Notes: a model not told the origin generated them from the sequence alone. Shown: positions 28,986 through 53,665, numbered from the stretch's first letter. The stretch: DNA of 64,000 nt from Desulfovibrio sp. (GCA_017454325.1 JAFTDG010000055.1:8018-72017); one strand, 5' to 3'. Numbers and translations: made by a program.

Positions 28986-30293
28986 ATGAAGAATACCCTT
29001 CCCTATCCGACAAATCAGGCTACTGCCCCCAAACACGCCGAAGATACCTGCACTTCCAGCTTCAATCGGCATCGCTCTAAGCTTGCCTTTGACCGCCTAG
29101 TTGAAATGGGTGCTAAGATGGGGATGGAAAATCCCCTTTTTCTCTGTCATGAACGTGCTGCCAAGGCTACGACGCTCATTGGAGGCAGAGAATATCTCAA
29201 TTTTTCAACATATGATTACCTTGATATCAATGCACATCCAGAAATCACCGACGTTGTAACTAAAGCGGCAGCCTTGTATGGTACATCAGCTGGTGCCAGC
29301 CGCCTCGTCGGCGGTGAACGCCCCCCACACCGCGAACTAGAGCACGCCCTCGCAGATTTTTATGGGGTGGAAGACTGTATCGTCTACGTAAGTGGTCATG
29401 CCACCAATGTCTCTACATTGGGTTTCCTGTACGGTCCCCGTGACGCTATTTTCCACGACGGACTGGCACATAATTCACTGGTACAAGGGGCAAGGCTTTC
29501 AGGCGCTGCACGTTTTTCTTACACACATAATGATTGTGAAGCTCTTGAATTACTTCTCAAGACAAGGCGAGCAGAATATAAACGCGCAATCATAGTAACT
29601 GAAGGGCTTTTTAGTATGGATGGCAACATCCCAGATCTGCCCCGCATCATAGAACTGAAAAAAAAGTATGATTGCATGCTTCTAGTAGATGAAGCCCACT
29701 CACTGGGAGTTCTCGGCAAAACTGGTCGTGGTGCGCATGAATATTTCGATATTGATCCCACTGAAGTAGACATGTGGATGAGCACACTCTCCAAGTCTAT
29801 GTGCGGTTGCGGTGGTTTTATAGCTGGCCGGCACGATCTTATTGAATTCCTGAAATATGGTTCCCCTGGTTTTGTTTTTAGCGTAGGCATGCCGCCCATT
29901 GTAGCCGTAGCTTGCCGAAAGGCACTAGAAATACTAATACGTGAGCCTGAACGTGTGCATAAATTACAGAAAATATCACAATTTTTTGTACATTACGCCT
30001 CAGAACTCGGGTTGGATACCGGTTCTGCCCAGGGATATGCCATAGTGCCTATCATGATTGGTGATGCCATGGTTGCAGGTTTTTTGGCCAATGCACTGAT
30101 AAAACGCAATATCTATGTGATGCCAATCACATTTCCAGCCGTAAAAGAAGGCACAGATCGCCTACGTTTCTTCCTTTCTGCTTCGCATACGGAAGAGCAT
30201 ATTCGTAAAGCTCTGGATGCAGTAAAAGAAGAGCTGCCCATAGCATGGGAAAATGTGAAAAGATATATGCGTGAGCATGCCAATGAGCAGTAA
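28986..30293 (+). CDS. PLP-dependent alpha-oxoamine synthase (serine palmitoyltransferase / 8-amino-7-oxononanoate synthase family)
   Basis: YLNFSTYDYL, SRLVGGE, HNSLVQG, LLVDEAHSLG and the PLP-lysine motif STLSKS. An N-terminal extension of about 55 aa containing ENPLF resembles bacterial Spt. Confidence 0.85.
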   Translation: MKNTLPYPTNQATAPKHAEDTCTSSFNRHRSKLAFDRLVEMGAKMGMENPLFLCHERAAKATTLIGGREYLNFSTYDYLDINAHPEITDVVTKAAALYGTSAGASRLVGGERPPHRELEHALADFYGVEDCIVYVSGHATNVSTLGFLYGPRDAIFHDGLAHNSLVQGARLSGAARFSYTHNDCEALELLLKTRRAEYKRAIIVTEGLFSMDGNIPDLPRIIELKKKYDCMLLVDEAHSLGVLGKTGRGAHEYFDIDPTEVDMWMSTLSKSMCGCGGFIAGRHDLIEFLKYGSPGFVFSVGMPPIVAVACRKALEILIREPERVHKLQKISQFFVHYASELGLDTGSAQGYAIVPIMIGDAMVAGFLANALIKRNIYVMPITFPAVKEGTDRLRFFLSASHTEEHIRKALDAVKEELPIAWENVKRYMREHANEQ

Positions 30294-31581
30294 CGAGGCG
30301 CCAGCAGTTGCCTATGTACTGCTCTGGTTTCCACTTTCTTCAGAAACATTTATTTTCCGCGAAGTTGTGCAGCTTATGGCTGCGGGTCTGCCCATACGCG
30401 TCTACTCAATGTATGGAGAGCGCGTCGTTGGATGCAGCAAGGAAATGCGAGCATACCCTGGCTATGTGCAACGCATGGGTGTGAAAGCCATAGGACAAAT
30501 TTTCTGTGCGTTTTTCAAATTCCTGCGTAGTGCGCCGCGTAAAGTTATATGGCTTCTACGCCGGGGTTTTTTCCATCGCATGCGCAATCTTGAATCGCTG
30601 GGAGAAAATCTCTGGTGCTTTATGGCCGGTTTTTTACTGGCAGAATTGTGTATCCGCGACGGCATAAAGCTCATCCACGCCCCGTGGGCAAACGGACCGA
30701 CTACAGCAGCATGGGTTGCTTCACATTTAACAAACATTCCTTATGCTTTCACTGGACGGGCTGGCGACATATATCCTGAAGACGGGTTACTTCACGAAAA
30801 ATCAACAGATGCACTATTCATCCGCACCAATAACCACGCCAATGTTGACTGGCTGCGTCGTTTTTGCCCTGCTGGCCAAGAGACGAAAATTCATACCGTT
30901 TATAATAGCCTGACCTTCAATCCAAGTGGCTCATGTGCTATTGCTATGCGCCCCCCTTACCGTCTGTTGGCCGTAGGACGCTTTGCCCGCACCAAGGGTT
31001 TTCCTGATCTCTTAACGGCCATAGCCCGCCTTGTTCGGGAAAATGTGCCCGTGAGCCTCACACTTGTCGGGGATGGCCGCTGGCGTCGCAAACTTACCAA
31101 GATGCGTGACCGTTTAGGCCTCAAGGATATTGTTAACATGCCTGGATTCATTCCGCACGACCAGATATGTAATTATATGCTCGACCATGACATGCTTATA
31201 ATGCCAAGCGTAGTGCATGCAAATGGAGACAGGGATGGCATCCCCAATGTAATCATGGAAGCGCTCTCGCATGGCATGCCCGTTATTGCTACTGACGTAT
31301 GCGGTATTGCTGAAGTAATCCATAATGAAGAGACAGGCCTGCTAGTACCACAGCGTAACCCTCGTACTCTGGCTGATGCCATCCGCAAAATGCTTGCCAA
31401 TAGGGAGCAAGCACTGCATATGGCTGAAACGGGGAGAAAACTGGTAGCAGAAATGTTTGATAGTAAGCGTAATATTGCAAAACTGTTGCAACTATACACT
31501 AATGAATGTGCACGCTGCTGGCATGCTGAACCACAAAAAGCCGCCAGAACAGACGGAGCTGCAGCTGAAGGCCATGCATGA
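30271..31581 (+). CDS. GT4-family (group 1) glycosyltransferase, WcaL-like
   Basis: N-terminal VAYVLLWFPLSSETFIFREV. C-terminal GT-B motif DGIPNVIMEALSHGMPVIATDVCGIAEVI..EETG. It overlaps the preceding gene. Confidence 0.85.
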   Translation: MSMPMSSNEAPAVAYVLLWFPLSSETFIFREVVQLMAAGLPIRVYSMYGERVVGCSKEMRAYPGYVQRMGVKAIGQIFCAFFKFLRSAPRKVIWLLRRGFFHRMRNLESLGENLWCFMAGFLLAELCIRDGIKLIHAPWANGPTTAAWVASHLTNIPYAFTGRAGDIYPEDGLLHEKSTDALFIRTNNHANVDWLRRFCPAGQETKIHTVYNSLTFNPSGSCAIAMRPPYRLLAVGRFARTKGFPDLLTAIARLVRENVPVSLTLVGDGRWRRKLTKMRDRLGLKDIVNMPGFIPHDQICNYMLDHDMLIMPSVVHANGDRDGIPNVIMEALSHGMPVIATDVCGIAEVIHNEETGLLVPQRNPRTLADAIRKMLANREQALHMAETGRKLVAEMFDSKRNIAKLLQLYTNECARCWHAEPQKAARTDGAAAEGHA

Positions 31582-32591: not shown

Positions 32592-32717
32592 CATAACTTT
32601 AGGACCAACCATAATATGGTGACAGCTCAACATCCAGACATGTTTTTCTTTTAAGCAGAAGATATGCCATCCAAACAATATAGCTAGGTATTATCAGTTT
32701 TGTCACGGAGTCTTGCC

Positions 32718-34043
32718 ATGTTGAAAACAACATTTTCGGGCAAACATCCCATCTTTTCGTCTGGATTACCCCATGTTGCCTATGTCCTTCTATGGTATCC
32801 CCTGTTCACACAACCCTTTATATTTCGCGAAGTTGAAGGCCTCAAGAATTTGCTGCCCCTTTCCGTATACAGTTTGTATGGATATAATCTGCGTCACTGT
32901 TCCACTGAAATGCGTGCGGCAGCAAATGAAACCCACACCTTCGGTATACGAACGCTGATACCTGTATTGGCAGAGTGCTTTCACTTTCTCGCGTTGCAAC
33001 CATTACGTTTCATGCGACTGCTGAAACATACACTTTTTTATCACTGGCACAGTTGGGAAATGTTGGGAGAAAACCTCTGGGCCTTCTTCATTGGCCTATA
33101 CCTAGGCCGTCTTTTTCAAGAAGCTGGCATTGACATGATATATGCGCCATGGCCCCGAGGTACGGCTACTGCAGCATGGGTAGCATCGCAAATTTCTGGT
33201 ATCCCCTTTGCCACAGCAGCACGTGGTGATAATTTAGAACCGGCAGATCCGGACCTTGGTGCCAAACTGACAGCTGCCAGTTTTATACGAGCCAATAATG
33301 CAGCAGACAAGCAGCGTATTGAGCAGTTCGACAAAGGTCAGGCCAAGGGGAAGGTGGAACTCATTTATAACAGCCTGACTTTACCTCCAGACACATTCAG
33401 AGAACCATCGCAACCAATACCGCAGCTCATGCCGCGTCCAGTGCAAATTCTAGCACTGGGCCGATTTGATGTTACCAAAGGTTTTGACATACTCATTCAG
33501 GCATGTGCAATCCTGCGTAACAAGGGGCTTGACTTCAGACTCACTTTGGCTGGCGGAGGAGGTACCGTTATGGGACTGGGACGCATGGAGGCACAAATTC
33601 TGAAACTCCGCAGAGAGTTACAGCTAGAGAATCTTGTGCATTTGCCAGGACTTGTCTCCCATAACGAGCTCCCCAACATGTTGCATGCGCACGATATCTT
33701 TGCCGCTCCCTGTATTGTTCACTCTTCAGGGCGTCGCGACGGCATTCCCAATACTGTCATTGAAGCCCTAGCATACGGCCTACCTGTGGTGAGTACCACG
33801 GTCAATGCTCTTCCTGAGGTTGTACGCAATAATGAAACCGGATTAGCTGTGCCTCCGGGGGATCCATCAGCTCTCGCTGATGCCCTTTTACGTCTAGCTG
33901 ACGACGCCCCCTTGGCAGCTCGACTGGCCCGCAACGGAAAAGACTTGGCACTAAAAATGTTTGATCCTGATCGTAACAACCAGCAGTTAGCAGATATATT
34001 CATAAGGTATTACACACAGCAGGAGAGTACATGTGCGGCATAG
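32718..34043 (+). CDS. GT4-family (group 1) glycosyltransferase, paralogue of 30271-31581
   Basis: VAYVLLWYPLFTQPFIFREV at the N-terminus. DGIPNTVIEALAYGLPVVSTTVNALPEVV.NNETG at the C-terminus. ATG 32718 follows GGAG (the track start at 32700 is a TTG). Confidence 0.85.
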   Translation: MLKTTFSGKHPIFSSGLPHVAYVLLWYPLFTQPFIFREVEGLKNLLPLSVYSLYGYNLRHCSTEMRAAANETHTFGIRTLIPVLAECFHFLALQPLRFMRLLKHTLFYHWHSWEMLGENLWAFFIGLYLGRLFQEAGIDMIYAPWPRGTATAAWVASQISGIPFATAARGDNLEPADPDLGAKLTAASFIRANNAADKQRIEQFDKGQAKGKVELIYNSLTLPPDTFREPSQPIPQLMPRPVQILALGRFDVTKGFDILIQACAILRNKGLDFRLTLAGGGGTVMGLGRMEAQILKLRRELQLENLVHLPGLVSHNELPNMLHAHDIFAAPCIVHSSGRRDGIPNTVIEALAYGLPVVSTTVNALPEVVRNNETGLAVPPGDPSALADALLRLADDAPLAARLARNGKDLALKMFDPDRNNQQLADIFIRYYTQQESTCAA

Positions 34044-35947
34044 CAGGCATTTGCCGTCTAGACAACACCCCCCTTACACCTAGTTCCACCCGCTGGGTGA
34101 TAGCTATGACAGACCGTATGGTCCACCGTGGACCAGATGGGCAAGGGGTCTGGACACATGGTCCTGTAAGCCTTGGTCATCGGCGACTTTCCATCATTGA
34201 CTTATCGGGCGGTAGTCAGCCAATGCATAGTCATGATGGACGATTAACCGTCGTATTTAACGGTGAAATCTATAATTTCCCTGAACTCAGGAAAGAACTC
34301 ATTGCCGCAGGTCACCGTTTTAGAACACAGTCAGATACAGAAGTTCTTCTTGAGAGCTATCGTCACTGGGGAACGGATTGTCTATCCCACTTTGACGGAA
34401 TGTTTGCCTTCGCCCTTTGGGACGCTACACACCATCGACTATTTTGTGCACGTGATCGTTTTGGAAAAAAACCTTTTTTTTATACAGTACAACACGGTCA
34501 GCTGTATTTCGCCTCGGAGCTTTCGGCACTGGAACAAGTTAAGGAGCTTCAGTTTACGATAAACCCTCAATCCGTCACTCGCTACCTTGCCTATGAATAT
34601 GTACCCGCCCCGCAAACCATGTATGCAGAAGTGTGCAACCTGCAACCCTCGCATCTTCTCCTGCTGGAACACGGGGATATACATATTCGTCGATACTGGG
34701 ATATGCCCATTCCAGACGAGCAAGATACACGAGATATAACTACACTATGCGAAGAGCTGCGCCACTTAATGACACGTGCAGTGCAAATGCGCATGATCAG
34801 TGACGTCCCGCTTGGTGTTTTTCTTTCAGGAGGTATTGATTCCACCATCATAGCCGGCCTCATGGCCACCCAGTCATCAGCCCCAATCAAGACATTTTCC
34901 ATTGGTTTTACCGAATCCGCATATGACGAATCTCGCTACGCACGTACCGCTGCCAAGACTTTTAGTACAGACCACCATGAACATGTACTCTCAGCAAAAG
35001 ACTGCGCGGATATCCTTCCCGGCATTATCAACGGTATGGATGTACCCATGGCCGACGCTTCAGTAGCGCCCACATGGTTACTTTCCAGTGTCACACGCGA
35101 GAAAGTCACCGTCGCTTTGGGCGGCGACGGTGCGGACGAACTTTGGGCAGGGTACGAACACTACATCGGTTTCAAGATTGCAGAATGGTATAATAAGCTG
35201 CCAAACAGCTTGCGCCGCCATATCATTGAACCTCTTGCGCAAATACTTCCTTCTTCTGCGGGCTATATCAATCCCCGCCTTGCCGTACAGACATTTTTAC
35301 AGGCAGCTCATGCGCCAGCTTGGCAGCGTGTGCAAAGCATGCTCACAGCTTTGACTTTAGATATGCAAAGAGAGGTCCTTTCCGCATCCTTTGTGTCACA
35401 GATTCCTGATTTTTTCTCTCCAGAAATACTCTTTGCTCCAACGCATACACAATACAAGCACTGGTTGCCCCGTGAAGCCGCTTCTCCTCTAGCGCGAGCT
35501 TTTCATGTCTATGTACGTCAGTTTTTACCAGAAGATATCCTTGTCAAGGTCGATCGGTGCTCTATGTTGCACAGCTTGGAAGTCCGCGCACCGTTTTTGG
35601 ACCGGGACGTGGCGATATTTGTTGCGCGCCTGCCAGTGCGCTACAAGTTGCACGGATTCAAGCGTAAATGGTTACTTAAGAAGGCATTTGCCGATCTGTT
35701 GCCAAATGAAATTTTGCATCGTAACAAACGTGGCTTCCAAATCCCCGTAGCACAATGGCTCCGAGGTCGTATGCGTCCACTTATGGAAGACATGCTTAAT
35801 GTTGACACGTTACGAAAACAAGGAATTTTTAACCCTCAGGCTGTACGAAAACTAATGGATCTACACATTTCTGGCCTGACAGACCTACGTAAGCCTCTAT
35901 GGACATTACTGGTTTTTCAACTTTGGTGGCAAGCTCACAAAGCTTGA
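34031..35947 (+). CDS. glutamine-hydrolysing asparagine synthase-family amidotransferase (AsnB-like)
   Basis: MCGIAG Ntn nucleophile, RGPD, and the SGGIDS PP-loop. It overlaps the upstream GT by 13 nt. Confidence 0.9.
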   Translation: MCGIAGICRLDNTPLTPSSTRWVIAMTDRMVHRGPDGQGVWTHGPVSLGHRRLSIIDLSGGSQPMHSHDGRLTVVFNGEIYNFPELRKELIAAGHRFRTQSDTEVLLESYRHWGTDCLSHFDGMFAFALWDATHHRLFCARDRFGKKPFFYTVQHGQLYFASELSALEQVKELQFTINPQSVTRYLAYEYVPAPQTMYAEVCNLQPSHLLLLEHGDIHIRRYWDMPIPDEQDTRDITTLCEELRHLMTRAVQMRMISDVPLGVFLSGGIDSTIIAGLMATQSSAPIKTFSIGFTESAYDESRYARTAAKTFSTDHHEHVLSAKDCADILPGIINGMDVPMADASVAPTWLLSSVTREKVTVALGGDGADELWAGYEHYIGFKIAEWYNKLPNSLRRHIIEPLAQILPSSAGYINPRLAVQTFLQAAHAPAWQRVQSMLTALTLDMQREVLSASFVSQIPDFFSPEILFAPTHTQYKHWLPREAASPLARAFHVYVRQFLPEDILVKVDRCSMLHSLEVRAPFLDRDVAIFVARLPVRYKLHGFKRKWLLKKAFADLLPNEILHRNKRGFQIPVAQWLRGRMRPLMEDMLNVDTLRKQGIFNPQAVRKLMDLHISGLTDLRKPLWTLLVFQLWWQAHKA

Positions 35948-36925: not shown

Positions 36926-36935
36926 GGCGAATAGC

Positions 36936-38636: not shown

Positions 38637-38715
38637 ACTTTATACTCTTTCAAAAAAGAATGCGAAAAAAACGGAATCCTTCTCAAAAGATATTCGTGTT
38701 GCTCCAATAAAAATT

Positions 38716-40794: not shown

Positions 40795-40878
40795 GGTAGT
40801 TCCTCCCTCAAAACGGTCCCTCAGCTTAAAATCTGGGGCATGCCGTTCCGACTGCGGATGCTTTTGTGGTGTAAAGGC

Positions 40879-40906
40879 GACGCCGCTTCCTAGCGGACGC
40901 GGCGTC
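40879..40906 (-). other. GC-rich hairpin in the 142-nt rpsG-fusA spacer
   Basis: GACGCCGC...GCGGCGTC outer stem with an alternative inner hairpin CCGCT-TCCT-AGCGG. Read directly from the sequence. Confidence 0.35.
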
Positions 40907-40936
40907 GTGTATCAAGCTGACAAAGGAAGGTTCGCA

Positions 40937-41407
40937 TTACCAGCGGTAGTGGGCGAAAGCCTTGTTAGCATCGGCCATGCGGTGTGTATCTTCACGCTTC
41001 TTTACCGCACCACCGCGCCCGTTATAGGCATCCAGCAGTTCAGCGGAGAGCTTAGCGGTCATGCCTTTTTCACCGCGGGAACGGGCATAGTTGATAAGCC
41101 AACGGATGGAAAGGGAAACCTGTCGCTCCGGCCGCACTTCCATGGGCACCTGATAGGTTGCTCCACCCACACGGCGGGCCTTGACTTCCATATGTGGTTT
41201 CACATTGTCCAAAGCCTTTTCAAAGGCACGCATCGGATCTTCGCCGGTCTTTTCAGCTAGTGCTTCCAGAGAACTATAAAAAATTTTTTCGGCTGCGCCT
41301 TTTTTGCCATTGTACATAAGCCGATTCACAAATTTAGTGACAAGCCGGCTGGAATACATAGGATCGGGCAGCACTTCCCTCTTGGGGACAGGACCTTTAC
41401 GTGGCAT
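40937..41407 (-). CDS. rpsG: 30S ribosomal protein S7
   Basis: [16 protein letters not shown]... is full-length S7. ATG 41407 follows AAGGAG. The track ORF is extended by 12 codons. Confidence 0.97.
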
Positions 41408-41506
41408 GGGGTTACTCCTTACATAAGGAAACGGCGTCACCAACCCCGCATCATCAGCGCACTAAAGCAGCCGGATGATACATGGCGCACGCCAATGATA
41501 AAAAAG

Positions 41507-41878
41507 TTATTTGGGACGTTTTGCACCGTATTTAGAACGGCTTTTACGACGATCTGTCACACCAGAAGTATCAAGTGTACCACGGACAATGTGATAACGA
41601 ACACCGGGCAGGTCTTTCACGCGACCTCCACGGATAATCACCACAGAGTGCTCCTGCAGATTATGGCCTTCGCCAGGGATGTAGGCCGTAACTTCGATGC
41701 CATTTGTTAAACGCACACGAGCGACCTTACGCAAAGCAGAATTCGGCTTTTTGGGAGTTGTGGTATACACGCGTGTACAAACGCCCCGACGCTGCGGGCA
41801 AGCCTGCAGAGCTGGGGTTTTTTTGCGTTTCACCACGGCCTTCCGCTCAATGCGGATAAGCTGATTAATCGTGGGCAT
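41507..41878 (-). CDS. rpsL: 30S ribosomal protein S12
   Basis: MPTINQLIR...[10 protein letters not shown]...[15 protein letters not shown] 41878 follows GGAGGAAG. Confidence 0.97.
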
Positions 41879-41991
41879 GAATGCTTCCTCCATAGAATTA
41901 GTTTGCACATGGGTACCTTCATGACAAACTTTTGAGCGGTAATCCATAGCCTGTCCTGGCTCCTCTGTCAATAGAGGGCACAGAATACTAG

Positions 41992-44658: not shown

Positions 44659-44693
44659 CTTGCTTTCTCCATAAAAGACGGCGATAGTATGGC

Positions 44694-46025
44694 ATGATCT
44701 TCGCCAAGCAGCCAATTTTTATTCTTTGGGATGAGTCCCATATCTGGGGACTCATGGCTTGGCGCGCCGTACGCGCACTGGGGCTGCCCTGCCGTCTAGT
44801 TAAGGGGAATGAAATAGCCGAAGGTACGCTTTTACGCAAGCCGCAAAACACGCGCTCGGGTTGTACACATACAGGTATGTTGCTGGTACCTGGTGGCAAT
44901 GCCCGCCTCAAGGCATACGCTCTTGGTTCTGCTGGTCGCGAAGCCATTCGCTACTGGCTCGCAGCTGGTGGGAACTATCTCGGCTTCTGTGGTGGTGCCG
45001 GTCTCGCCCTGACACAGACTCAACCGGACGAAGGCCTGAACATTTGCCCCTGGACACGAGCAAACTACCCCCAACGCCTGAATCATCTAATATCAGGCCA
45101 TGTACAGTCACATGTTACTCTCGGTCACGCATTCTCTCCAAAATCTCCTGTACCTGCAGATGAACTACTCTCTTTACCCGTATGGTGGCCGGGACAATTT
45201 GCCCAACAAAAATGCCCAAATGTACAGGTGCTTGGGGTTTGCCACAGACCAGACAAAGATTTTTGGATTGCCGATTTACCCATGCAACAACTGCCCAGCG
45301 GTACTATTGAACATTGGCGAACCCTGTATGGCGTCAACCTTTCAGCAGATTTTCTGGAAGGGCAACCTCTTGTGATCACTGGAACTTATGGTTCTGGTCG
45401 TTATGTCTTGAGCTATTCACACCTGGAAACTCCGCACAGTCCAATGGCCAACACATGGCTGGCCCAAATACTCGCTAATATGACACAACTTGTCCCCAAA
45501 AACGACCAAGTGCCCCTGTGGCAACTACGACACCCACATATATCATGGCCCGATTACCGCGAACGTACTCTACTGATGGATGCCCTTCGGCATATGCGTG
45601 ACCTCCTTGACCTCGCGGTGGAACACCATCTTTTCTTTGCACGTACCCACTGGCTGTGGGGCTGGCGCACAAGTCTGCCCGGCGCGAGCTGTAACCATTT
45701 GCACGCTGCACTATGTTCTGTGCTGGCGCTAAAACCCACATCCGCAGCGCGAATCTACTGGAGAGAGATGGCGACACGATTTGCCGCACTGGAACACATT
45801 TTTATGTCAGGTGCAGAAGAATATTTTTTAGCCTGCCGTTTAGCAGAAACACTTAGCCCCTCATTGCCCGATACTGTGGAAAAACGCTGGTTGGATCATC
45901 AACGCGAATCCTTATTTGGCCATCCCATGTACGGTGGCGGCATTCTATCAGAACTGCTTTCCATTATTGAGGAAATCATCTACCTCTCACAAGATAATGC
46001 CTTGACAGATACAGATGTTCTTTGA
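44694..46025 (+). CDS. hypothetical protein with an N-terminal class-I glutamine-amidotransferase-like (BPL_N-like) fold and a helical C-terminal half
   Basis: PIFILWDES...LLVPGGNA...GGNYLGFCGGAGLAL resembles the strand-loop pattern of the BPL_N/GATase1-like family. This is pattern recall only and was not searched. Confidence 0.4.
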   Translation: MIFAKQPIFILWDESHIWGLMAWRAVRALGLPCRLVKGNEIAEGTLLRKPQNTRSGCTHTGMLLVPGGNARLKAYALGSAGREAIRYWLAAGGNYLGFCGGAGLALTQTQPDEGLNICPWTRANYPQRLNHLISGHVQSHVTLGHAFSPKSPVPADELLSLPVWWPGQFAQQKCPNVQVLGVCHRPDKDFWIADLPMQQLPSGTIEHWRTLYGVNLSADFLEGQPLVITGTYGSGRYVLSYSHLETPHSPMANTWLAQILANMTQLVPKNDQVPLWQLRHPHISWPDYRERTLLMDALRHMRDLLDLAVEHHLFFARTHWLWGWRTSLPGASCNHLHAALCSVLALKPTSAARIYWREMATRFAALEHIFMSGAEEYFLACRLAETLSPSLPDTVEKRWLDHQRESLFGHPMYGGGILSELLSIIEEIIYLSQDNALTDTDVL

Positions 46026-46121
46026 CTTTTATTCATACGCATCATATTCATACATTTCATGACGCAGTATTATTAATATATAGCGCTATAATATATATAA
46101 TAATTCACTGTTTAACTTAAA

Positions 46122-46138
46122 CATTACATTATGTAATG
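46122..46138. repeat. 17-bp perfect palindrome CATTACAT-T-ATGTAATG
   Basis: Read directly from the sequence. Confidence 0.7.
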
Positions 46139-46162
46139 ACAATATAAAATATACTTTGATTA

Positions 46163-46186
46163 TTATAAAATTATTTATAAAATTAT
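46163..46186. repeat. perfect tandem duplication of the 12-mer TTATAAAATTAT
   Basis: Read directly from the sequence (46163-46174 equals 46175-46186). Confidence 0.7.
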
Positions 46187-46260
46187 AAATAAGTTATTAC
46201 TTATAATGATTTCATTACACACATACTCAACAATATCAACTACAAATATTTACATATACT

Positions 46261-46293
46261 GTGATGCAACAAAGTTATAAATTACTGCATCAC
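46261..46293. repeat. inverted repeat GTGATGCA-N17-TGCATCAC
   Basis: Read directly from the sequence. It lies just upstream of the putative -35 element. Confidence 0.65.
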
Positions 46294-46306
46294 TGAATAA
46301 TGTTGC

Positions 46307-46335
46307 TAGACAAATAACACGATATCATTTATAAT
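46307..46335 (+). promoter_or_regulatory. putative sigma-70-type promoter TAGACA-N17-TATAAT
   Basis: Perfect -10 hexamer at 46330-46335 and a 4/6 -35 match at 46307-46312 with a 17-nt spacer. It lies about 44 nt upstream of ATG 46379. Confidence 0.4.
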
Positions 46336-46378
46336 AAAGAATATATTTATTGATTATTCTTGCACCACAGGTCAAAAA

Positions 46379-49300
46379 ATGCGCCAAATTCCTGACATCG
46401 CTCCCGGCAATGATCCGGAAGAATATGTGCTCGATGGTGTTCGCTATGCCAATGTGCGCCAAGGTGATCAACTATGGCATATAGGAAGCATTACGCCCAC
46501 ATGGCGGCAGGAGTTACTGTCACTGCCTCCAAATCCTGAAAGAGAGAGCATAGCACGATTAGAGACACGAGGCCTTTGGCTCTCACCTGCAGGCACACCA
46601 TGCCCTCCGTTGGCAGTCATGTGCTGTGGTCTTGGTTCTGTATGGCCAGGCATGGGTCGCGAACTGTACGATAATTTTCCCGTTGCAAGAGCGGCCATGG
46701 ACCGCATTGCTGCTGTAGCAAACTGGGATATTCTCGGTCTCATGGATGAGAGAGATGCAGAAAAAATAAACCATACACGCTGGCAATGTCCCTACCTTTT
46801 TATGCTGGAATTCGCCCAGTGGAACCTGCTGCAATCCTTGGGGCTCGCACCGACCCTGATTTGCGGTCATAGCCTTGGCGAACTGATTGGTTTGTGTTTT
46901 GCGGGAGTCTATACACCTGAGGTTGCTTGGTATATTTTGGATACACGTGCCGTTCACATGGCTGAGCTGGAAACCACTGCAACCCGCGAAACCGGCATGA
47001 TGGCCGTACATGGTAGCGCCGAGGTCATTTGTGAAACGCGCAAAAATTGGCCTTCACTTTATGTCTCCAACTATAACACGCCGCAGCAGTTCATTCTTAG
47101 CGGCCCACGCGAAATGCTTCTAGAAGCTCGCAGGCATTTGCGCAAACGTCACATCCCGGCCATTGTTCTGAATGTAAGTCTGGCTTTCCACCACCCTGGC
47201 ATGCGCGTACTGCGAGATCTCTCCCTACGCCGTCTGAATGCCTTGGCAATGCATGCGCCCAAATTTCCCATGTTAAGCTGCATTACCACAGGTTTCTACC
47301 CAGAAGATCAACCGAATATTTGCCGTTATATTGCGGATCTGGATGAAAATGCTGTCCGCTGGACAGAATGTGTGCAAGCCATGTGGAAACGTGATGGCAT
47401 TCGCGTATTCCTCGAACTTGGGCCACAGGAAACACTTTGCAGCCTTGTAGCAGACAACCAATCGGATGCCTGCTGTTTCTCTGCGGGACGCAAAGGACAT
47501 GAAGTCGAGAGTCTACGTAGCACCTGCGCTCGTCTGTACTCCAAAGGCTATCTGCACAGCCCCGCCGCGTCTCGTAGAATATTTGTAAGCACACATGGGC
47601 TTGATCTCCAGCCCCCGGCCCCTCATCACAGCCCCCTGCCTCCTGACGGAGCAGAAATACTGCATACTAAAGTCTCTTTGCCACCTAAAATACCTGTTGT
47701 CCCCCCTGTCAATGCCTCGGACTCGGATAATACAAAAATAATTCCCTCGCACCCATCAACAGCACATTGCCTTGCCATAGTGACAGCTGCCATAGCCAGA
47801 GCCTGCGAACGTCCCATTGACGAACTACGGCCAGAAATGGATCTCCGTTATGACCTCGCGCTGCGTTCAAGCCGTTTCCCGCTTATTGTGCAGGATGTGG
47901 AGAAAGCGTTGGGTTGCTCTATAAATTTCGACCAGTTATTACAGGTTTCCACCATTGGTGATTTTGCCCGTATACTGTCCGGCGATAGTGCCATTGCCTC
48001 TTCCGCAATGCACAACAACCCCTTACCAGCTCAGACGGAAAAGGGGTTTACGCACCCTCTTGTTCGCTATGCGCCCCTCACTGGGTTACCCTTGAATAAT
48101 GAAAAACCGATTGTACTTCTTCCTCTTTCCCATAATTCATATGGACAAGGTTTGCCCTTGCACAAGGAAAGCGTATTGGCAGTATGGGGGCCTGACGCAC
48201 ACCTCCTGCGGCAGCTATTGCGCGGTCTTGCCCCACTGGGATGCAAGATTGGCATACCAGCAGCCTTTCTGGATGCATGCCAGCCTTTGGCAGAACTAGG
48301 CGCACGACTTATCCCGCTTGATATGCCGTTGACGCCACACGAAGCATTAACGACCGCTTCTGCGACCATAAACTCACTGTCAAAAATCAACGGCCGTCTG
48401 GACGGGATCCTGTTTGCAGTGCCTTTAGTCGGGGCAGAAGATGCTACATCATCACAAGAAAAAGCATCAGCAGACTTATTGCAAACGCTAGTCCAAGAGG
48501 GCTTTACATATGGCTTACAATTTGTCTGCTCTTGTACAGTATTACCGCCCGCTGGCGATAATTGTGTTTTTGATGGCCCACTAGCGAAGGCATTGGAAAC
48601 AAAGATTCCCTCAAATCTGGATATACGTTCCATCCGACTGTTACATGGCGGGGAACCTTGCGATCTGGAAGAATGGGGAGACATGCTAGCCCAAGAACTT
48701 ATGTACGGCACGACAGCTCGTGTTATCTGGGCACGCCCCGGCGAATTATCAGGAAACGTATTCGCGCCTATTCCGAAACCGCAATACCAACATGGTCCAC
48801 CCGCGTCATGCTTCCCTCCTATGTTTATGGATCCTGCTCCTCCCTATAATGTGACAGCTTCATTGACGCAAACCTGTTGTCATTTTTCACGTTTCGCCGA
48901 CCCTGTTTTGAACGATCACGGTGGCTGCAAAGGGGAATACCTGGACCGTTCAGATCCATGGCTCCCAGCGAGTTATGCCCTAACGGTGCTTCTGGAGGGA
49001 GCACGCTCAGTGTTACCTTGGCTTCAGCCAACAGGTTTCTGCGATATACGCTTTCACCACGTACCAACATTACCGCCGGGTATTACACGTGAATGTCGCC
49101 TTGCGGTGGAAGCGGAGCAATGGCTCACGCAAGATGGCACAATGACGCGCATGTGCCGAGGTCGACTTTCGGTACGGCAATTAACCCCAAACGGTCGACA
49201 CACACAAGACTATGCCCAAGTGATGGACGGCATGGCCTGGTTGGCACCCAAAGGAGCTATGGTGCCCCCCCTATGGATGCATACGCCTGTTTCACCTACA

Positions 49301-49780
49301 CCAATAACCATAGACCCCAGGCTCTTTTATGCTGCTGCAGGTCTTGGCTCTACATGGCGCCTGGTACGTTCTTTTACCCCACTATCGGATGATATGTTTA
49401 CTGTCACGCTATGTCTGTCAGAAACAGCGATTGCCCCCAGAAACAATTATAGTTATAATAATTATCTCTGTGTTGTGGAAGGTATATTGCAAGCAGGCAT
49501 GCTCGCACTGACGTTCAGGGATTCCAACGCATTTGCCGATGCTGTTGCCATAGCGACCCTCATAAAGCTATGGAACCTCAATGGGATAGGTTTTATCCGT
49601 TTTGGAACGTGTCGAGCGACAGGCCCGGTACATTTACTACTACGCCGTTCCTGGAACGACGGGCATCTTCTGCGTTTTGACGCACAGGCCGTGGACTGTC
49701 GGCAAAATGTCTTTCTGACAGTACACCATATTGAATTTTCCAAACGCGATCACGAAAAGTGGCGTACAACTTTTGTATGA
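46379..49780 (+). CDS. multidomain protein: FabD/PKS-type acyltransferase, carrier-protein-like domain, Rossmann-like region, and PKS-type double-hotdog dehydratase. No ketosynthase.
   Basis: AT domain: GHSLGE (Ser165, nt 46871-46873), NYNTPQQFILSG and AFHHPGM. Carrier-like helix DLRYDLALRSSRF...STIGDFARIL (aa ~462-535). Dehydratase: LNDH (His847, nt 48917-48919) plus PWLPASYALTVLLEGA, and VVEGILQAG in the second half. Confidence 0.8.
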   Translation: MRQIPDIAPGNDPEEYVLDGVRYANVRQGDQLWHIGSITPTWRQELLSLPPNPERESIARLETRGLWLSPAGTPCPPLAVMCCGLGSVWPGMGRELYDNFPVARAAMDRIAAVANWDILGLMDERDAEKINHTRWQCPYLFMLEFAQWNLLQSLGLAPTLICGHSLGELIGLCFAGVYTPEVAWYILDTRAVHMAELETTATRETGMMAVHGSAEVICETRKNWPSLYVSNYNTPQQFILSGPREMLLEARRHLRKRHIPAIVLNVSLAFHHPGMRVLRDLSLRRLNALAMHAPKFPMLSCITTGFYPEDQPNICRYIADLDENAVRWTECVQAMWKRDGIRVFLELGPQETLCSLVADNQSDACCFSAGRKGHEVESLRSTCARLYSKGYLHSPAASRRIFVSTHGLDLQPPAPHHSPLPPDGAEILHTKVSLPPKIPVVPPVNASDSDNTKIIPSHPSTAHCLAIVTAAIARACERPIDELRPEMDLRYDLALRSSRFPLIVQDVEKALGCSINFDQLLQVSTIGDFARILSGDSAIASSAMHNNPLPAQTEKGFTHPLVRYAPLTGLPLNNEKPIVLLPLSHNSYGQGLPLHKESVLAVWGPDAHLLRQLLRGLAPLGCKIGIPAAFLDACQPLAELGARLIPLDMPLTPHEALTTASATINSLSKINGRLDGILFAVPLVGAEDATSSQEKASADLLQTLVQEGFTYGLQFVCSCTVLPPAGDNCVFDGPLAKALETKIPSNLDIRSIRLLHGGEPCDLEEWGDMLAQELMYGTTARVIWARPGELSGNVFAPIPKPQYQHGPPASCFPPMFMDPAPPYNVTASLTQTCCHFSRFADPVLNDHGGCKGEYLDRSDPWLPASYALTVLLEGARSVLPWLQPTGFCDIRFHHVPTLPPGITRECRLAVEAEQWLTQDGTMTRMCRGRLSVRQLTPNGRHTQDYAQVMDGMAWLAPKGAMVPPLWMHTPVSPTPITIDPRLFYAAAGLGSTWRLVRSFTPLSDDMFTVTLCLSETAIAPRNNYSYNNYLCVVEGILQAGMLALTFRDSNAFADAVAIATLIKLWNLNGIGFIRFGTCRATGPVHLLLRRSWNDGHLLRFDAQAVDCRQNVFLTVHHIEFSKRDHEKWRTTFV

Positions 49781-49829: not shown

Positions 49830-51293
49830 ATGCTCAACACGCATACCTTACATATGTACAATCTGATTTGCTTATTACCGCTCATCTTGAGTGTTGCTCT
49901 TGTCGGCTGTTCCAGCAAGGCGGGAATCAAATCACCTGAATTGCCTGCTAAGCACTGGTTAGAAGAAGCGCCAGGCGTGCCAGTGGAAAACAAGTCCAAA
50001 CTTGAGGCTGTATTGCCCAACCTATATAATCCACAAAAAAATTTTTCGTTTGAAGATTGTGTCTTTCTGACAATCCAACAGTCTCCTCAGTTGGTCAACA
50101 GCGCCGTAGAAATTGAGATCAAACGGCTTGCTCAAACTAACGCAGTCCTTAAATATCTACCTGAGCCCCGGATAGCACTGACCGTTTCCAACAACATCAC
50201 TCGTTACAATATGAACACGCGTGATACCCCTAATGACTATGGACAACCCAAAGCACATATAGGTTTTTATGCGCCTTTTCCCAACCCAGTTGCAACGTAT
50301 TTTGAACACCAGGCACAGAAAGCCATGGTAAATGTCGCCATCTCGACCCACCGCAAGGCAGTGGGCACAGCTATCCGAGAGATAGCACAGGCATACCTCA
50401 AATTGCAGGCACGTCAAAAAATTGTGGAGGCGCAAAAAGCCCTGCTCCCCCTGGGTAAAGAGCTGATCGCCTATTGGAAACAGGTAGAAAATATTGAAGG
50501 CCGTCAAGGTGTGTCTCTGAACGCAGCCATGCAGCATCAGCGTGAATTGGAGTTAGAGCTGGAACAAAGCAAAATGCAGGAGACCATGCAACGCACTCAG
50601 CTCAAAATCCTTGCTGGGGTTGAACCGCAGCAACGTTTTGCTGTGGATACCAAGAGTGCTGATACCATTCTTCAAGGTTTCGACGGGCGTAAACTCACAT
50701 GGGAAGAACGCTGGCCAGCTACAGAAGACGAGCTTTTGTTGCGTGCGCAGGTACTGTTGGCAGACTACAATATTATGCTGGCTTGGGCTCAGTATGTGCC
50801 TGATATGTCCATCCACCTAAATCAGTCTCCACCGTCAGGCCAGTATCAACCAACACACGGCACAGATGATACCTTTTTGCATCTGAATTTTGATTTCCCG
50901 CTCATCGACTGGGGTCGTCGCCATCGTGGAGTTCAGACAGCACGTATGCAGAAAGCACAGGCTTTTCACGATATAGCCCGCAAGCGCACAGACTACTCAA
51001 ATAAATGGTTACAAGCCGAACAAAATGTTACCCTTGCGGAAACACAGCTCAAACTGGCCAAAACACGTTTCGACACGGCCGACATGCGCTTCAAGGAGGC
51101 TAGTATCTCCTTCAAAGAAGGACTTGTGGAACTGCCTTTCCTGGCAGAAGCGCAGGAAAATATGGTGAAGGCCCGGATAGCCCATATTATGGCCGAGCTT
51201 GATTACAACCTGGCGAAGTTGGGCTGGATGTTTGTAGCGAATGTGCTACAGGAACGCTTTCTGGGGTTGCCTGCCAAGGAGGTGGTGCAATAA
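49830..51293 (+). CDS. TolC/NodT-type outer-membrane efflux lipoprotein
   Basis: Lipobox SVALVGCSS. Two-repeat OEP-like helical/beta pattern. ATG 49830. The track ORF extension overlaps the upstream gene. Confidence 0.7.
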   Translation: MLNTHTLHMYNLICLLPLILSVALVGCSSKAGIKSPELPAKHWLEEAPGVPVENKSKLEAVLPNLYNPQKNFSFEDCVFLTIQQSPQLVNSAVEIEIKRLAQTNAVLKYLPEPRIALTVSNNITRYNMNTRDTPNDYGQPKAHIGFYAPFPNPVATYFEHQAQKAMVNVAISTHRKAVGTAIREIAQAYLKLQARQKIVEAQKALLPLGKELIAYWKQVENIEGRQGVSLNAAMQHQRELELELEQSKMQETMQRTQLKILAGVEPQQRFAVDTKSADTILQGFDGRKLTWEERWPATEDELLLRAQVLLADYNIMLAWAQYVPDMSIHLNQSPPSGQYQPTHGTDDTFLHLNFDFPLIDWGRRHRGVQTARMQKAQAFHDIARKRTDYSNKWLQAEQNVTLAETQLKLAKTRFDTADMRFKEASISFKEGLVELPFLAEAQENMVKARIAHIMAELDYNLAKLGWMFVANVLQERFLGLPAKEVVQ

Positions 51294-52222
51294 TGATGTC
51301 TATATCTCTTTCTCGCAGAATGCGACATCCACTCCTTGCAGTGCTAACATGTTCACTCTCTGTTATGCTTTTTTCAGCGCCACTTACTGCAGCCGAAAAC
51401 GGAACTATTCTTACCGGTAAGGTGGTTACCACAGTAACGCGTGCTGTGCCCCTACCCTTCCACGCTGTAGTTGACGAAGTACTGGTTAAACCTGGTACAC
51501 CCGTTTCCAAAGGCACGCCGCTTTTGCGTTATCATCTTCAAGACGAGGCTGAACGAGCACTGCAACGTGAAGTGACTTCAGGTGCCGGTACTGAAGGACT
51601 ACGAGGGCAGGTATTAAATCTTGAACGTGAATTGACCGAGGCCGCAGCCCAGCGTAACAAAGCCCGCCAGCTGGCTGCTTCAGGCCTTGGCTCGTCACAG
51701 GCTTCCAACCGCCAAGAAAGCGTTGTAAAGTCTCTTCGTGAACGCATAGAACTGCTGCGTATAACCATAGACAAACAGGAACGGAATTTTGCCCTGCGCC
51801 TTGAGGAGCTAAGCAAACATTTTGCTACCACCATTAAGGCAGGAGAGACTCTGCCTGACACGCTGACACTGACCTCACCCATTGATGGGTATGTCCTCTT
51901 TCTGGATGTTGCACTCAACCCGGGTTCACTATTGCCCGGAGGAAGTACGCCCATAAGTGTCGGCAAACTTGACCCGGTGCTTATTCAGGTACCTGTTTAC
52001 GAAGCAGAGATCAGCGGCATCAAGGAAGGTGATGCTGTTGTGGTGGAAATTCCCTCACTGCATGACAAGAAATTTAAGGGAACAGTAAATGAGATTTCTT
52101 GGGTCTCCAACGACATGAACGTATCCACCCCATCGTATTATACGGTGGAGGTTACTGTGCCCAACCCCAACCTCGAACTCAAGCCTGGCTTCAAGGCGGT
52201 AGTGCGTTTTACGGGCAAATAA
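51293..52222 (+). CDS. HlyD-family periplasmic adaptor (membrane fusion protein)
   Basis: Signal/anchor sequence, lipoyl-like VDEVLVKPGTPVSKGTPLLRY, a coiled-coil hairpin of about 90 aa, SPIDGYV, and a beta-barrel C-terminus. TAATG overlap with the OMF gene. Confidence 0.75.
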   Translation: MMSISLSRRMRHPLLAVLTCSLSVMLFSAPLTAAENGTILTGKVVTTVTRAVPLPFHAVVDEVLVKPGTPVSKGTPLLRYHLQDEAERALQREVTSGAGTEGLRGQVLNLERELTEAAAQRNKARQLAASGLGSSQASNRQESVVKSLRERIELLRITIDKQERNFALRLEELSKHFATTIKAGETLPDTLTLTSPIDGYVLFLDVALNPGSLLPGGSTPISVGKLDPVLIQVPVYEAEISGIKEGDAVVVEIPSLHDKKFKGTVNEISWVSNDMNVSTPSYYTVEVTVPNPNLELKPGFKAVVRFTGK

Positions 52223-52231: not shown

Positions 52232-53665
52232 ATGAAGCTAAAAAGCATCCCTCGCCGGCTGGGCTTCATTCTGGGTGCGCAGTGGACGCGCGATTTAGCA
52301 TGGACCGTCTTTACCATCCTTCTGGCACGTCGTAGTCCAGATATTCTTGGGCAGATTGTTCTGGCGCTTACATTCGGTTATTTGGTCAAAACCGTTGCCG
52401 ATGTAGGGTTGAATGATTTTTTACTGTCCACTTTTGCACGCAGGGAGGGGCACCCCCGGGCCCTTCTGGGCGAAGTGACTTGGCTCAAGTTGGCCGTCTT
52501 ATTGCTGGCATTGGGAGTAACATGGCTCATCACCGGCTGGCAGGGCTATACACCTGAATTGCGCCTGGTAGTCATGTGTATCGCCGCTGGTCTAGGACTG
52601 GACGGCGTGAGTGATTCCTTCTTTGCGCTGTGCCAGGCACGGGGCCGTCAGGATGTGGAAATGCGCATCCGCATCCCCTCCGCACTTCTGGGGCTTGGTT
52701 TCGGCATTGCCTGTGTGCTGCTGGACGCTCCGCCCCTTGTCATTGCCCTCTACAAAGTGATTGAATCACTGCTCTGCATTGCCTTTGCCCTTGCTGCTCT
52801 GGAGCGCAATCCTCTTGCTGGCGTGGGCCTTGCTGGAATGAAGGATCTTGCACACCAGATGAAAAACGGCCTTGTTTTCACCTGCATGGCAGCCTGCGCT
52901 ATGTTTTATAATAAAATCAACGTGATTTTTCTCAAACAATACGGTGGTAATGCCGACGTAGGTGGTTACGGAGTCGCCTGGGAAACCGTGGAAGGTCTAT
53001 CGGTTCTCGTTTCGGGAGCACTCCTTGGCAAGGTAATCTTTCCACTGCTGGCACAATATTGGCAGCAGGACAGAAATGCCTTCCAGCAACTAGCTGGACA
53101 GACCGCACGTTCGCTATGGGCAGCGGCCTTGCCAATCATTTTTTTGATTTGTGTAGAAAGCGACCGTTTTTTACCACTGGTCTATGGTGAAAACTACCAG
53201 TCAGCCGTAACTGCACAACGACTGCTCACGCCATGCCTCGCCACGGCATTTCTGCACAATCTGGCAGCCTACGCTATGATAGGTATGCGCCGGCACCATC
53301 TGTTACTCGTCTTTTACTGCAGTGGCCTTGTTTGCAATCTGATCTGCTGCATGACGCTTATCCCTCGTATGCCACTGGAAGGTGCTGCCCTGTCTTTAAC
53401 CATAACCAAAGTGTTTGTGGCTGTGCTGACTGTAGGTTTTTTTCAATACACAGCACACCCCATGTCGTTCTGCCAATGGCTGTGCATGCTTCTTACTGCC
53501 TCCATCAGCGTGACCCTATGGTGGAGTGTGAACTATATAGCTCCACGTGAAGTCGCAGAGCTGTGCGGCCTTGCACCACTGTTAGTACTCTTCTGGTACT
53601 GGCGGCCACCACCTCCCTTCGAATCATCGACACCTAAAAACAATGACAAGACTTGCACTGCCTGA
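52232..53665 (+). CDS. MOP-superfamily (Wzx-like) oligo/polysaccharide flippase
   Basis: 477 aa with a 12-14 TM profile and N-terminal and central patterns typical of polysaccharide biosynthesis/flippase proteins. It starts 9 nt after the adaptor gene. Confidence 0.65.
   Translation: MKLKSIPRRLGFILGAQWTRDLAWTVFTILLARRSPDILGQIVLALTFGYLVKTVADVGLNDFLLSTFARREGHPRALLGEVTWLKLAVLLLALGVTWLITGWQGYTPELRLVVMCIAAGLGLDGVSDSFFALCQARGRQDVEMRIRIPSALLGLGFGIACVLLDAPPLVIALYKVIESLLCIAFALAALERNPLAGVGLAGMKDLAHQMKNGLVFTCMAACAMFYNKINVIFLKQYGGNADVGGYGVAWETVEGLSVLVSGALLGKVIFPLLAQYWQQDRNAFQQLAGQTARSLWAAALPIIFLICVESDRFLPLVYGENYQSAVTAQRLLTPCLATAFLHNLAAYAMIGMRRHHLLLVFYCSGLVCNLICCMTLIPRMPLEGAALSLTITKVFVAVLTVGFFQYTAHPMSFCQWLCMLLTASISVTLWWSVNYIAPREVAELCGLAPLLVLFWYWRPPPPFESSTPKNNDKTCTA

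Follow-up and report, generated by a model that had tools for sequence, protein, structure and literature searches.

The 64,000-nucleotide stretch of Desulfovibrio sp. DNA considered here (GCA_017454325.1 JAFTDG010000055.1:8018-72017, hereafter the window) carries on its + strand an open reading frame (ORF), 46379 to 49780, that opens with ATG and encodes a 125-kDa protein of 1133 aa, labelled by NCBI only as an 'acyltransferase domain-containing protein'. Its translation is that of a real reading frame, in which an acyltransferase (AT), an acyl carrier domain (ACP), a Rossmann-like domain and a double-hotdog dehydratase (DH) follow one another, and the gene stands at the head of a compact set of export genes (Table 1). 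A first-pass annotation of the window, made by a model from the sequence alone, had read these same four domains, and correctly: Pfam recognises the AT and the carrier, profile comparison relates the third domain to ketoreductases (KR), and Foldseek matches the fourth to DH. The motifs it quoted all occur where it placed them (GHSLGE at 163-168, AFHH at 269-272, LALRSSRF at 493-500, LNDH at 844-847 and VVEGILQ at 1032-1038); NYNTPQQFILSG, which it gave between GHSLGE and AFHH, is likewise present in the translation, as is PWLPASYALTVLLEGA at residue 860. It was also right that the window encodes no ketosynthase (KS), thioesterase, adenylation enzyme or phosphopantetheinyl transferase (PPTase), none of which appeared in a Pfam scan of the 50 large ORFs. 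The gene product does not represent a new type of enzyme: it is an iterative type I synthase in a reduced form that had not been described before, and its gene lies in an uncharacterised cluster with an unusual exporter combination.

More than 350 homologues were found, all of the named ones from Desulfovibrio or Desulfovibrionaceae, and hundreds of genomes and metagenome-assembled genomes (MAGs) have an uninterrupted ORF at 34-62% identity. A one-genome-per-species scan gave 349 loci; the best 80, which were examined for their labels, are nearly all Desulfovibrio/Desulfovibrionaceae and include D. piger ATCC 29098, D. desulfuricans and D. falkowii. Gene order was compared by tblastn of the window proteins against 86 loci, within ±10 kb of each. 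The closest relative (locus L007, 90% identity) comes from a reindeer-gut MAG, and a codon comparison of this single pair gave dN/dS values of 0.12 for the AT, 0.07 for the ACP, 0.19 for the Rossmann-like domain, 0.27 for the DH and 0.37-0.47 for the linkers; every domain of the protein looks constrained, under purifying selection.

The origin of this architecture can be read from longer relatives. A HMMER search with aa 541-1133 returned only 104 representative clusters among 1.8 billion proteins, most of them with the architecture of the window protein, together with a few relatives of 1650-1815 aa from other Desulfovibrionaceae that have the Pfam order KS-AT-ACP-KR-DH. A search with the KS-bearing protein P0202 gave about twenty proteins of that order, followed by hundreds of 2400-2750 aa from other Thermodesulfobacteriota that are complete ER(NMO)-KS-AT-ACP-KR-DH synthases, the enoyl reductase (ER) being of the PfaD/FabK type (Pfam NMO). 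The KS of P0202, P0204, P0212 and locus L075 keep their Cys (GAACSSS) and both His (HATGT and K.Q.GH). At the other extreme are homologues of 860-950 aa that have no KR-like domain altogether and run AT-ACP-DH, so the family falls into four grades: ER-KS-AT-ACP-KR-DH; ER-less with KS; KS-less with a dead KR, as in the window; and KS-less and KR-less. None of its proteins reaches a curated NCBIfam threshold, the nearest models for the KS-bearing relatives being PKS_plus_SDR and PfaA.

The N-terminus of the short proteins points to the same ancestry. Family N-termini match residues ~480-567 of P0202, its post-KS linker (phmmer E 1e-14 to 1e-20), and aa 1-75 of the window protein also align with the linker of an ORF at L075, a Desulfovibrionaceae MAG, that runs from KS through linker to AT; the window protein thus begins inside an old KS-AT linker. 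Seven relatives (P0045, P0043, P0040-P0042, P0047 and P0054) have N-terminal extensions of 170-350 aa ahead of this linker remnant. A phmmer search for KS remnants in the extensions of 250-350 aa (e.g. P0045) matched only the linker part, and the extensions could be heavily decayed KS sequence or unrelated additions.

The first-pass annotation knew of no characterised fatty acid or polyketide module with such a layout. The layout is not unparalleled, since the order AT-ACP-KR-DH matches that of Pfa-like and enediyne-type iterative synthases, orthologous clusters in other Desulfovibrionaceae carry KS-AT-ACP-KR-DH proteins with the Cys-His-His of the KS intact, and more distant relatives are complete synthases. 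It had also anticipated the case in which the homologues prove to be subunits of a canonical polyketide synthase (PKS) with KS genes nearby; such is the situation in a minority of relatives, and not in the Desulfovibrio clade. A KS lies within 10 kb in only two of 84 loci (L006 and L075), with none in the other 82.

A Pfam search of the kind proposed at first pass placed Acyl_transf_1 at aa 82-358 (E 7e-33, 114.9 bits against a cutoff of 32.7) and PP-binding at aa 468-532 (26.4 bits against a gathering cutoff of 20.8), and gave no KR or PS-DH match in the window protein. In NCBIfam all matches of the AT domain fall below threshold, the best being PKS_plus_SDR and fabD; with the FabD equivalog TIGR00128 the AT scores 126 bits (E 2e-36) against a cutoff of 260.9. 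Among PDB sequences the AT matches Thermus FabD best (E 1e-27). Ser165 (GHSLGE), Arg190 and His271 (xAFH) align with residues of that enzyme; all three are invariant in 29 of 29 diverse homologues, and Arg190 is the equivalent of FabD Arg117, the Arg that binds the malonyl carboxylate. To judge from this alignment, the AT has the complete Ser-His-Arg set typical of malonyl-type transferases. In the carrier, the counterpart of E. coli AcpP Ser36 is Ser497, which stands at the start of helix II and is invariant across the homologues examined, within a motif, DLRYDLALRSSRFP, that is almost invariant in the family. The first-pass annotation had read LALRSSRF correctly here; that it departs from the usual DS was taken as an anomaly, which it is not, as the RS is family-wide and the RSS motif also occurs in complete megasynthases of Pseudodesulfovibrio, Desulfobacca and Thermodesulfovibrionales. 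A PPTase (ACPS) gene adjoins the synthase in both complete-relative loci examined (L087 and L089). Because complete synthases with an adjoining PPTase gene share the RSS motif, Ser497 is predicted to be the normal attachment site of the family. A degenerate carrier was considered and rejected, RSS being the norm in complete relatives, and the site appears bona fide, an invariant serine at the canonical position.

Neither Pfam nor NCBIfam matched the C-terminal half (for Pfam, aa 540-1133), and structure prediction and profile-profile comparison were used there instead. An AlphaFold2 (AF2) model of aa 550-1133, built from an alignment with 104 full-length homologues, has a mean pLDDT of 91.3 and a pTM of 0.91. 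It contains a Rossmann-like beta-alpha-beta fold at aa ~595-790, which had been described at first pass as alpha/beta without GxGxxG, and the Gly-rich motif is indeed lost. By hhalign this domain matches the KR domains of the KS-bearing relatives (probability 99.8%, E 2e-27, 208 columns), and the KR of the 1650-1815 aa relatives sits exactly at its position. In the window protein the glycine-rich NADPH motif GGxxGI is replaced by WGPDAH, the SS..Y..AN catalytic block is deleted or substituted, with Cys at the Tyr position, and a lid segment of ~22 aa is missing. On these motifs aa ~595-790 is a dead ketoreductase, in which the short-chain dehydrogenase/reductase (SDR) fold is kept and the cofactor-binding and catalytic motifs are lost.

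For the last domain, aa ~821-1125, Foldseek against the PDB returns PKS dehydratases, namely CurJ (3kg8, E 9e-15, TM 0.71), MlnB (5hst, TM 0.75), CurF (3kg6), CurH, CurK, RzxB and a MAS-like DH, at E 1e-13 to 1e-15 and TM (target) 0.64-0.76 (0.65-0.76 for CurJ, CurF and MlnB), together with GphF and the whole PKS chains PsoA, LovB and CalA3. These matches confirm the double-hotdog DH assignment made at first pass, which had staked its reading on HMM and structure searches finding the AT and the DH; Pfam finds the one and Foldseek the other. Pfam PS-DH, which has no match in the window protein, matches the homologous region of relatives P0204, P0191, P0357 and P0355. The His of complete synthases (LPNHKP, I[AD]DHRP) has its counterpart in His847, their LLEALMQ (ExxxQ/H) in Glu1034-x3-Gln1038 and their Tyr in Tyr1026; the His-to-Pro spacing is 16 residues, against 9 in HxxxGxxxxP. 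Among 105 family members, position 847 is His in 86 and Cys in 11, and at position 1034 Glu (72 members) outnumbers Asp (18) and Ala (14), while S837, P863, W881, D889, R904, E905, R924, C926 and R940 are invariant in all, Y1026 is kept in 103 and D1101 in 102. The Glu that the first-pass annotation saw in VVEGILQ is there; its being unusual is not borne out, since Glu is the family norm in complete synthases too. A degenerate DH was rejected on the same ground, and by alignment the domain keeps the His, Glu, Gln and Tyr set of the family. We also considered and rejected a simple linear series of losses from complete synthase to window protein, since the DH His, retained in the KS-less group, is absent from the ER-less group that still has a KS. 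These two groups are best regarded as sister lineages.

Table 1. Features of the AT gene, its export operon and the AOS operon in the window (positions counted from the first letter of the window).
Feature	Position	Strand	Basis
AT-ACP-pseudoKR-DH gene, whole	46379..49780	+	KS-AT-linker remnant, AT, ACP, pseudo-KR, DH
Remnant of KS-to-AT linker, aa 1-75	46379..46603	+	phmmer; alignment with L075
FabD/PKS-type acyltransferase, aa 76-392	46604..47554	+	Pfam, PDB FabD alignment, invariant residues
Phosphopantetheine carrier domain, aa 463-535	47765..47983	+	Pfam PP-binding; predicted site Ser497 in DLALRSS
Pseudo-ketoreductase, aa ~595-790	48161..48748	+	hhalign against KR of relatives; motif loss
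PKS-type double-hotdog dehydratase, aa ~821-1125	48839..49753	+	AF2 model, Foldseek; His847, Pro863, Tyr1026, Glu1034, Gln1038
AT-rich intergenic region with likely operon promoter	46026..46378	+	353 bp, 22% GC against 50% for the window
Outer-membrane factor (OMF), TolC/NodT-like lipoprotein	49830..51293	+	Pfam OEP E 4e-30; ORF open from 49731
Periplasmic adaptor (HlyD/MFP family)	51293..52222	+	Pfam HlyD_D23, HlyD_3
MOP-superfamily (Wzx-like) flippase	52232..53665	+	Pfam Polysacc_synt_3 E 2e-18
Alpha-oxoamine synthase (AOS; BioF/Kbl/SPT family)	28986..30293	+	Pfam Aminotran_1_2 E 4e-47
GT4 glycosyltransferase	30271..31581	+	Profile match, synteny
CE4/NodB-like deacetylase-fold protein, 337 aa	31578..32591	+	AF2 and Foldseek; syntenic in 55 loci
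Second GT4 glycosyltransferase	32700..34043	+	Profile match, synteny
AsnB-type glutamine amidotransferase	34031..35947	+	Pfam Asn_synthase E 1e-99; syntenic in 50 loci

Downstream, the AT gene is followed so closely by three export genes that the tight operon seen at first pass is confirmed. The likely start of the outer-membrane factor (OMF), an ATG at Met34 of the open frame that is followed by a lipoprotein signal peptide with lipobox LVGC, lies 50 bp past the AT-gene stop; the start of the MFP-family adaptor gene overlaps the OMF stop at 51293, and the MOP flippase gene begins 10 bp past the adaptor stop. The adaptor has a weak DevB-family match in NCBIfam. In the homologue survey suggested at first pass, the OMF, MFP and MOP genes were found downstream of the AT gene in all 58 of the 58 loci with at least 5.5 kb of downstream sequence (tblastn). 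No Wzy polymerase, chain-length regulator or initiating phosphoglycosyl transferase was detected among the 50 window ORFs scanned; what accompanies the flippase here is an MFP and an OMF, a pairing of which we know of no earlier description. Adaptors have been described with ABC, RND or MFS pumps, and for this reason the MOP/MFP/OMF combination may be a new type of exporter. In the KS-bearing cluster at L006 the MOP gene is replaced by genes for two large polytopic membrane proteins (9198-12046 of that locus; one of 555 aa, for which no Pfam hit is recorded, the other of at least 395 aa), which suggests a different export or glycosylation route there.

A second operon belongs to the same cluster, which turned up in many Desulfovibrio genomes, most of them isolates and MAGs from gut, rumen and termites. 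In 52 of the 65 loci with enough upstream sequence, a divergent operon headed by an alpha-oxoamine synthase (AOS) gene lies 1.5-2 kb upstream of the AT gene, in the order AOS, GT4, 337-aa protein, GT4, AsnB, usually followed by HtpX and a DVU_2496-family lipoprotein. The AOS is the best-conserved gene of the cluster (66-86% identity across loci), and its PDB matches are KBL, AONS and SPT (E 1e-61 to 1e-69). The 337-aa protein has no Pfam or NCBIfam match and only chance hits in a PDB sequence search; its AF2 model (pLDDT 93), a CE4/NodB-like deacetylase barrel, matches by Foldseek 3rxz (E 1e-9), HP0310 (3qbu) and ArnD (8t0j) at TM 0.55-0.65 and 13-15% identity. AsnB resembles the XrtA/PEP-CTERM amidotransferase model, with 613 bits against a cutoff of 817. 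The first-pass annotation had missed the link of the AT gene with the AOS, GT4, deacetylase-like and AsnB genes: its list of absent enzymes stands, but a condensing enzyme that depends on pyridoxal phosphate, the AOS, does occur in the window, and it is the system's only condensing enzyme.

In the window the AOS operon is displaced, with AOS to AsnB at 28986-35947 and the whole operon at 28986-37334, and argJ, fusA, rpsG, rpsL, valS and an ORF of 443 aa lie between it and the AT gene (37374-46025). This separation is a lineage-specific rearrangement common to the window and L007. The place of argJ and fusA in Desulfovibrio sp. 86 (L001) is downstream of the MOP gene, so that an inversion or translocation seems to have taken place in the window lineage. 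The AT-rich spacer ahead of the AT gene, in which the best sigma-70-like match is TAGACA-17-TATAAT (46307-46335, 11 of 12 positions), recurs only in L007 (18% GC), other relatives having 53-75% GC there, and it appears to have come in with the rearrangement that parted the two operons. The 443-aa ORF (44694-46025, +) matches Pfam BPL_N (GATase1-like) weakly and nothing in NCBIfam; it was rejected as a cluster member, being found among the 86 loci only in the closest relative.

The clusters of the longer relatives are related in content. At the KS-bearing loci L006 and L088 an AOS gene lies divergently upstream and OMF-MFP(-MOP) genes downstream, and L075 has the AOS/GT4/337-aa/AsnB operon. The complete, ER-bearing loci L087 and L089 are without AOS; a radical-SAM enzyme and the PPTase adjoin the synthase, several glycosyltransferases are present, and the two have between them an epimerase/reductase-like gene, AsnB, MOP, OMF and MFP-like genes.

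Elsewhere the window holds housekeeping genes. Two ORFs upstream of the AOS operon (26531-28341, +; 267 aa, with two predicted membrane segments, and 325 aa) have no Pfam or NCBIfam match and are not syntenic with the cluster in other loci. A 729-aa ORF (61769-63958, +) is also without a Pfam match, and the FliD flagellar cap protein (6289-9339, +) is unusually long at 1016 aa, with ~500 residues between its N- and C-terminal Pfam domains.

Several known systems resemble parts of this cluster. A catalogue of Pfa-like 'secondary lipid synthases' includes uncharacterised deltaproteobacterial types; it has no Desulfovibrio type and no single-polypeptide ER-KS-AT-ACP-KR-DH type (Shulse & Allen 2011, PMC3098273). 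The family is like Pfa synthases in that the best NCBIfam models of its KS-bearing members are PKS_plus_SDR and PfaA, the domains are of iterative fatty acid synthase (FAS)/PKS type, and the complete relatives have a PfaD/FabK-type ER, lipid-looking clusters and an adjoining PPTase gene, whereas the window protein itself has no KS, ER or active KR, has one carrier domain and reaches no curated family threshold. Enediyne PKSE proteins, of order KS-AT-ACP-KR-DH-PPTase, likewise place the carrier ahead of the reductive domains in the series AT-ACP-KR-DH; unlike them, the window protein has neither a KS nor a C-terminal PPTase domain, no enediyne-associated genes were seen, and the DynE8 and CalE8 structures are not among its top sequence or fold matches. 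Loading AT-ACP didomains and FabD share its AT fold, Ser-His dyad, malonyl-binding Arg and, in the didomains, a fused carrier, but the window protein adds a pseudo-KR and a DH, stays at 126 bits against the 261 of fabD, and feeds no assembly line.

Closer in gene content are pathways that join a carrier-bound chain to an AOS, as in bacterial sphingolipids (Spt with ACP), fungal fumonisin and sphingofungin (PKS with Fum8 or SphA), SxtA and PigH. SphA and SPT are among the PDB matches of the window AOS, and here too an AOS adjoins a carrier-bound acyl chain, which it could set free by condensing it with an amino acid; GT4 enzymes nearby recall bacterial glycosphingolipid synthesis. The window differs in that its AOS lies under the SPT, BioF and Kbl cutoffs, no ceramide synthase and no reductase is present, the carrier is a domain of a PKS remnant rather than a free ACP, and there is a dedicated OMF-MFP-MOP exporter. 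The heterocyst glycolipid system (Hgl PKS, HglT glycosyltransferase and the DevBCA-TolC exporter) also combines a PKS-derived aglycone, a glycosyltransferase and MFP/OMF-dependent export, and the window adaptor matches the DevB family weakly; by contrast, the window cluster has a MOP flippase instead of an ABC transporter, has an AOS and AsnB, and is without a KS.

Taken with this context, the gene probably provides the acyl portion of a glycolipid-like molecule that is exported and has yet to be characterised. The account we tentatively favour, while giving it somewhat less than an even chance, is that a descendant of a Pfa/PKS-like ER-KS-AT-ACP-KR-DH megasynthase now serves as the self-loading acyl-carrier subunit of a Desulfovibrionaceae pathway in which an AOS offloads the chain, with glycosylation and export of the product to follow. 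Ser497 would receive its phosphopantetheine from a PPTase whose gene lies elsewhere in the genome, and the cis AT would load malonyl from malonyl-CoA onto the carrier. The chain would most likely be extended and reduced there by housekeeping type II FAS (FAS II) enzymes (FabF/FabH and FabG), and 3-hydroxyacyl intermediates would be dehydrated by the cis DH. FAS II help is implied by the lack of a KS and of an active KR in cis, and is the weakest link; retention of the DH makes most sense if 3-hydroxyacyl intermediates are still produced there. The AOS may then use an amino acid in a Claisen condensation that offloads the acyl or enoyl thioester and yields a long-chain amino-ketone, a sphingoid-like base, to which the GT4 enzymes, the deacetylase and AsnB might add an amino-sugar or amide head group before flippase, adaptor and OMF carry the product to the cell surface or outside. 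AOS enzymes do use ACP-bound acyl donors, as BioF does with pimeloyl-ACP and bacterial serine palmitoyltransferase with acyl-ACP, and as in the AONS domains of SxtA and PigH. The complete relatives have a reductase-like gene in the place of the AOS, which suggests that the AOS is the release enzyme of the ER-less branch, and the glycosyltransferase, OMF, MFP-like and MOP genes of their clusters suggest a lipid-type product. The conserved gene context agrees with the proposal made at first pass, of a self-loading acyl carrier for an envelope lipid or glycolipid that is exported; from this context we can only infer the product and the chain source.

A number of observations weigh against this account. 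The AOS falls under every NCBIfam equivalog cutoff (bioF 346 against 426, Kbl 320 against 460, SPT models 194-283 against 500-670). The AT and AOS operons of the window are 10.4 kb apart with housekeeping genes between them, and at nine loci of the short form (AT-ACP-DH) no AOS lies within 10 kb; some of the synteny may merely reflect gene order within the genus, as HtpX and the lipoprotein gene are syntenic too. In the DH, His847 is missing in ~18% of family members and the acidic residue in ~14%. Elongation by FAS II on a carrier embedded in a 125-kDa protein is itself a proposal, and the cluster holds no ceramide-synthase-like N-acyltransferase, keto-reductase or acyl-ACP synthetase. The literature on Desulfovibrio lipids and PKS, AOS-PKS clusters and sulfate-reducer glycolipids gave nothing on the family, a product or a phenotype, and a 2026 Desulfovibrio pangenome paper does not mention the cluster.

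Other explanations draw on much of the same evidence. It may be that no chain is built at all and the AOS is the sole condensing enzyme, joining malonyl (or acetyl after decarboxylation) to an amino acid to give a small amino-keto acid that AsnB amidates and GT4 enzymes glycosylate, the export product being a polar glycoside or an exopolysaccharide decoration. Such a route would agree with the 82 of 84 loci without a KS, with the malonyl-type substrate indicated by Arg190 and xAFH, and with the resemblance of the AsnB, GT4 and MOP genes to components of exopolysaccharide and PEP-CTERM systems; moreover, the substrates of AsnB-type enzymes are free carboxylates (the malonamyl starter is a proposed product of OxyD, and PcsA amidates polyene carboxylates). 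We consider it unlikely nonetheless, as a DH with its full catalytic set under purifying selection would be left unexplained if only malonyl or acetyl were carried, a beta-keto acid product would readily decarboxylate, acetyl-CoA could feed the AOS directly without a carrier of 1133 aa, and the ancestral and sister clusters hold full chain-building synthases. The CE4/NodB-like fold of the 337-aa protein raises a different prospect, in which a GT4 enzyme adds GlcNAc, the deacetylase frees its amine and the carrier acyl group is transferred to it, as in Nod factors (NodB deacetylase, NodA and the NodF ACP are the precedent), giving a lipo-amino-sugar, with the AOS acting elsewhere or making the acceptor. 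The 337-aa and glycosyltransferase genes do stay by the AT gene in short-form loci without AOS (L053-L055, L065). However, no NodA-like or other N-acyltransferase was seen in the cluster, the deacetylase is assigned from a fold match at TM 0.55-0.65 and 13-15% identity, and no other gene of the cluster is as conserved as that of the AOS, a sign that this enzyme has a central role; a Nod-factor-like product seems distinctly improbable.

The missing chain-building activities might also be supplied not by FAS II but by a KS (and KR) dedicated to this system whose genes lie elsewhere in the genome, the whole forming a split PKS/FAS. A KS is fused in cis in relatives, gene fission with relocation is common, and the survey covered ±10 kb around each locus. 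This we hold to be rather improbable, with no KS in that range in 82 of 84 loci nor anywhere in the 64-kb window, and with proteins that start inside the KS-AT linker and, in most members, have no docking-type extension. Finally, loss of the KS, death of the KR, its deletion in some lineages and loss of the DH dyad in some subclades are what would be expected of a decaying relic without current function. Against decay stand the intact ORF in hundreds of genomes and MAGs at 34-62% identity, the invariant catalytic and attachment residues of AT and ACP, dN/dS of 0.07-0.27 in all domains and the strict linkage to export genes (58 of 58), and we regard a functionless relic as very improbable.

The natural graded series found here shows which parts of a megasynthase persist once chain building is lost or outsourced, and the family is a test case for cross-talk of a type I carrier with FAS II or AOS enzymes; the pairing of a MOP flippase with an MFP and an OMF merits separate study. 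Among gut sulfate reducers, Desulfovibrio are common and have been linked to inflammation, and bacterial sphingolipid-like and glycolipid molecules, such as those of Bacteroides, modulate host immunity. It is tempting, if doubtful in so specific a form, to suppose that gut Desulfovibrio (including D. piger and D. desulfuricans) export a glycosylated sphingoid-like amino-lipid for which an AOS, and not a KS, carries out the condensation on an AT-ACP-DH core left from an ancestral megasynthase, with unprecedented export by MOP, MFP and OMF proteins. Were this true, the surface or secreted glyco-amino-lipid of the cluster would be a concrete candidate for a host effector.

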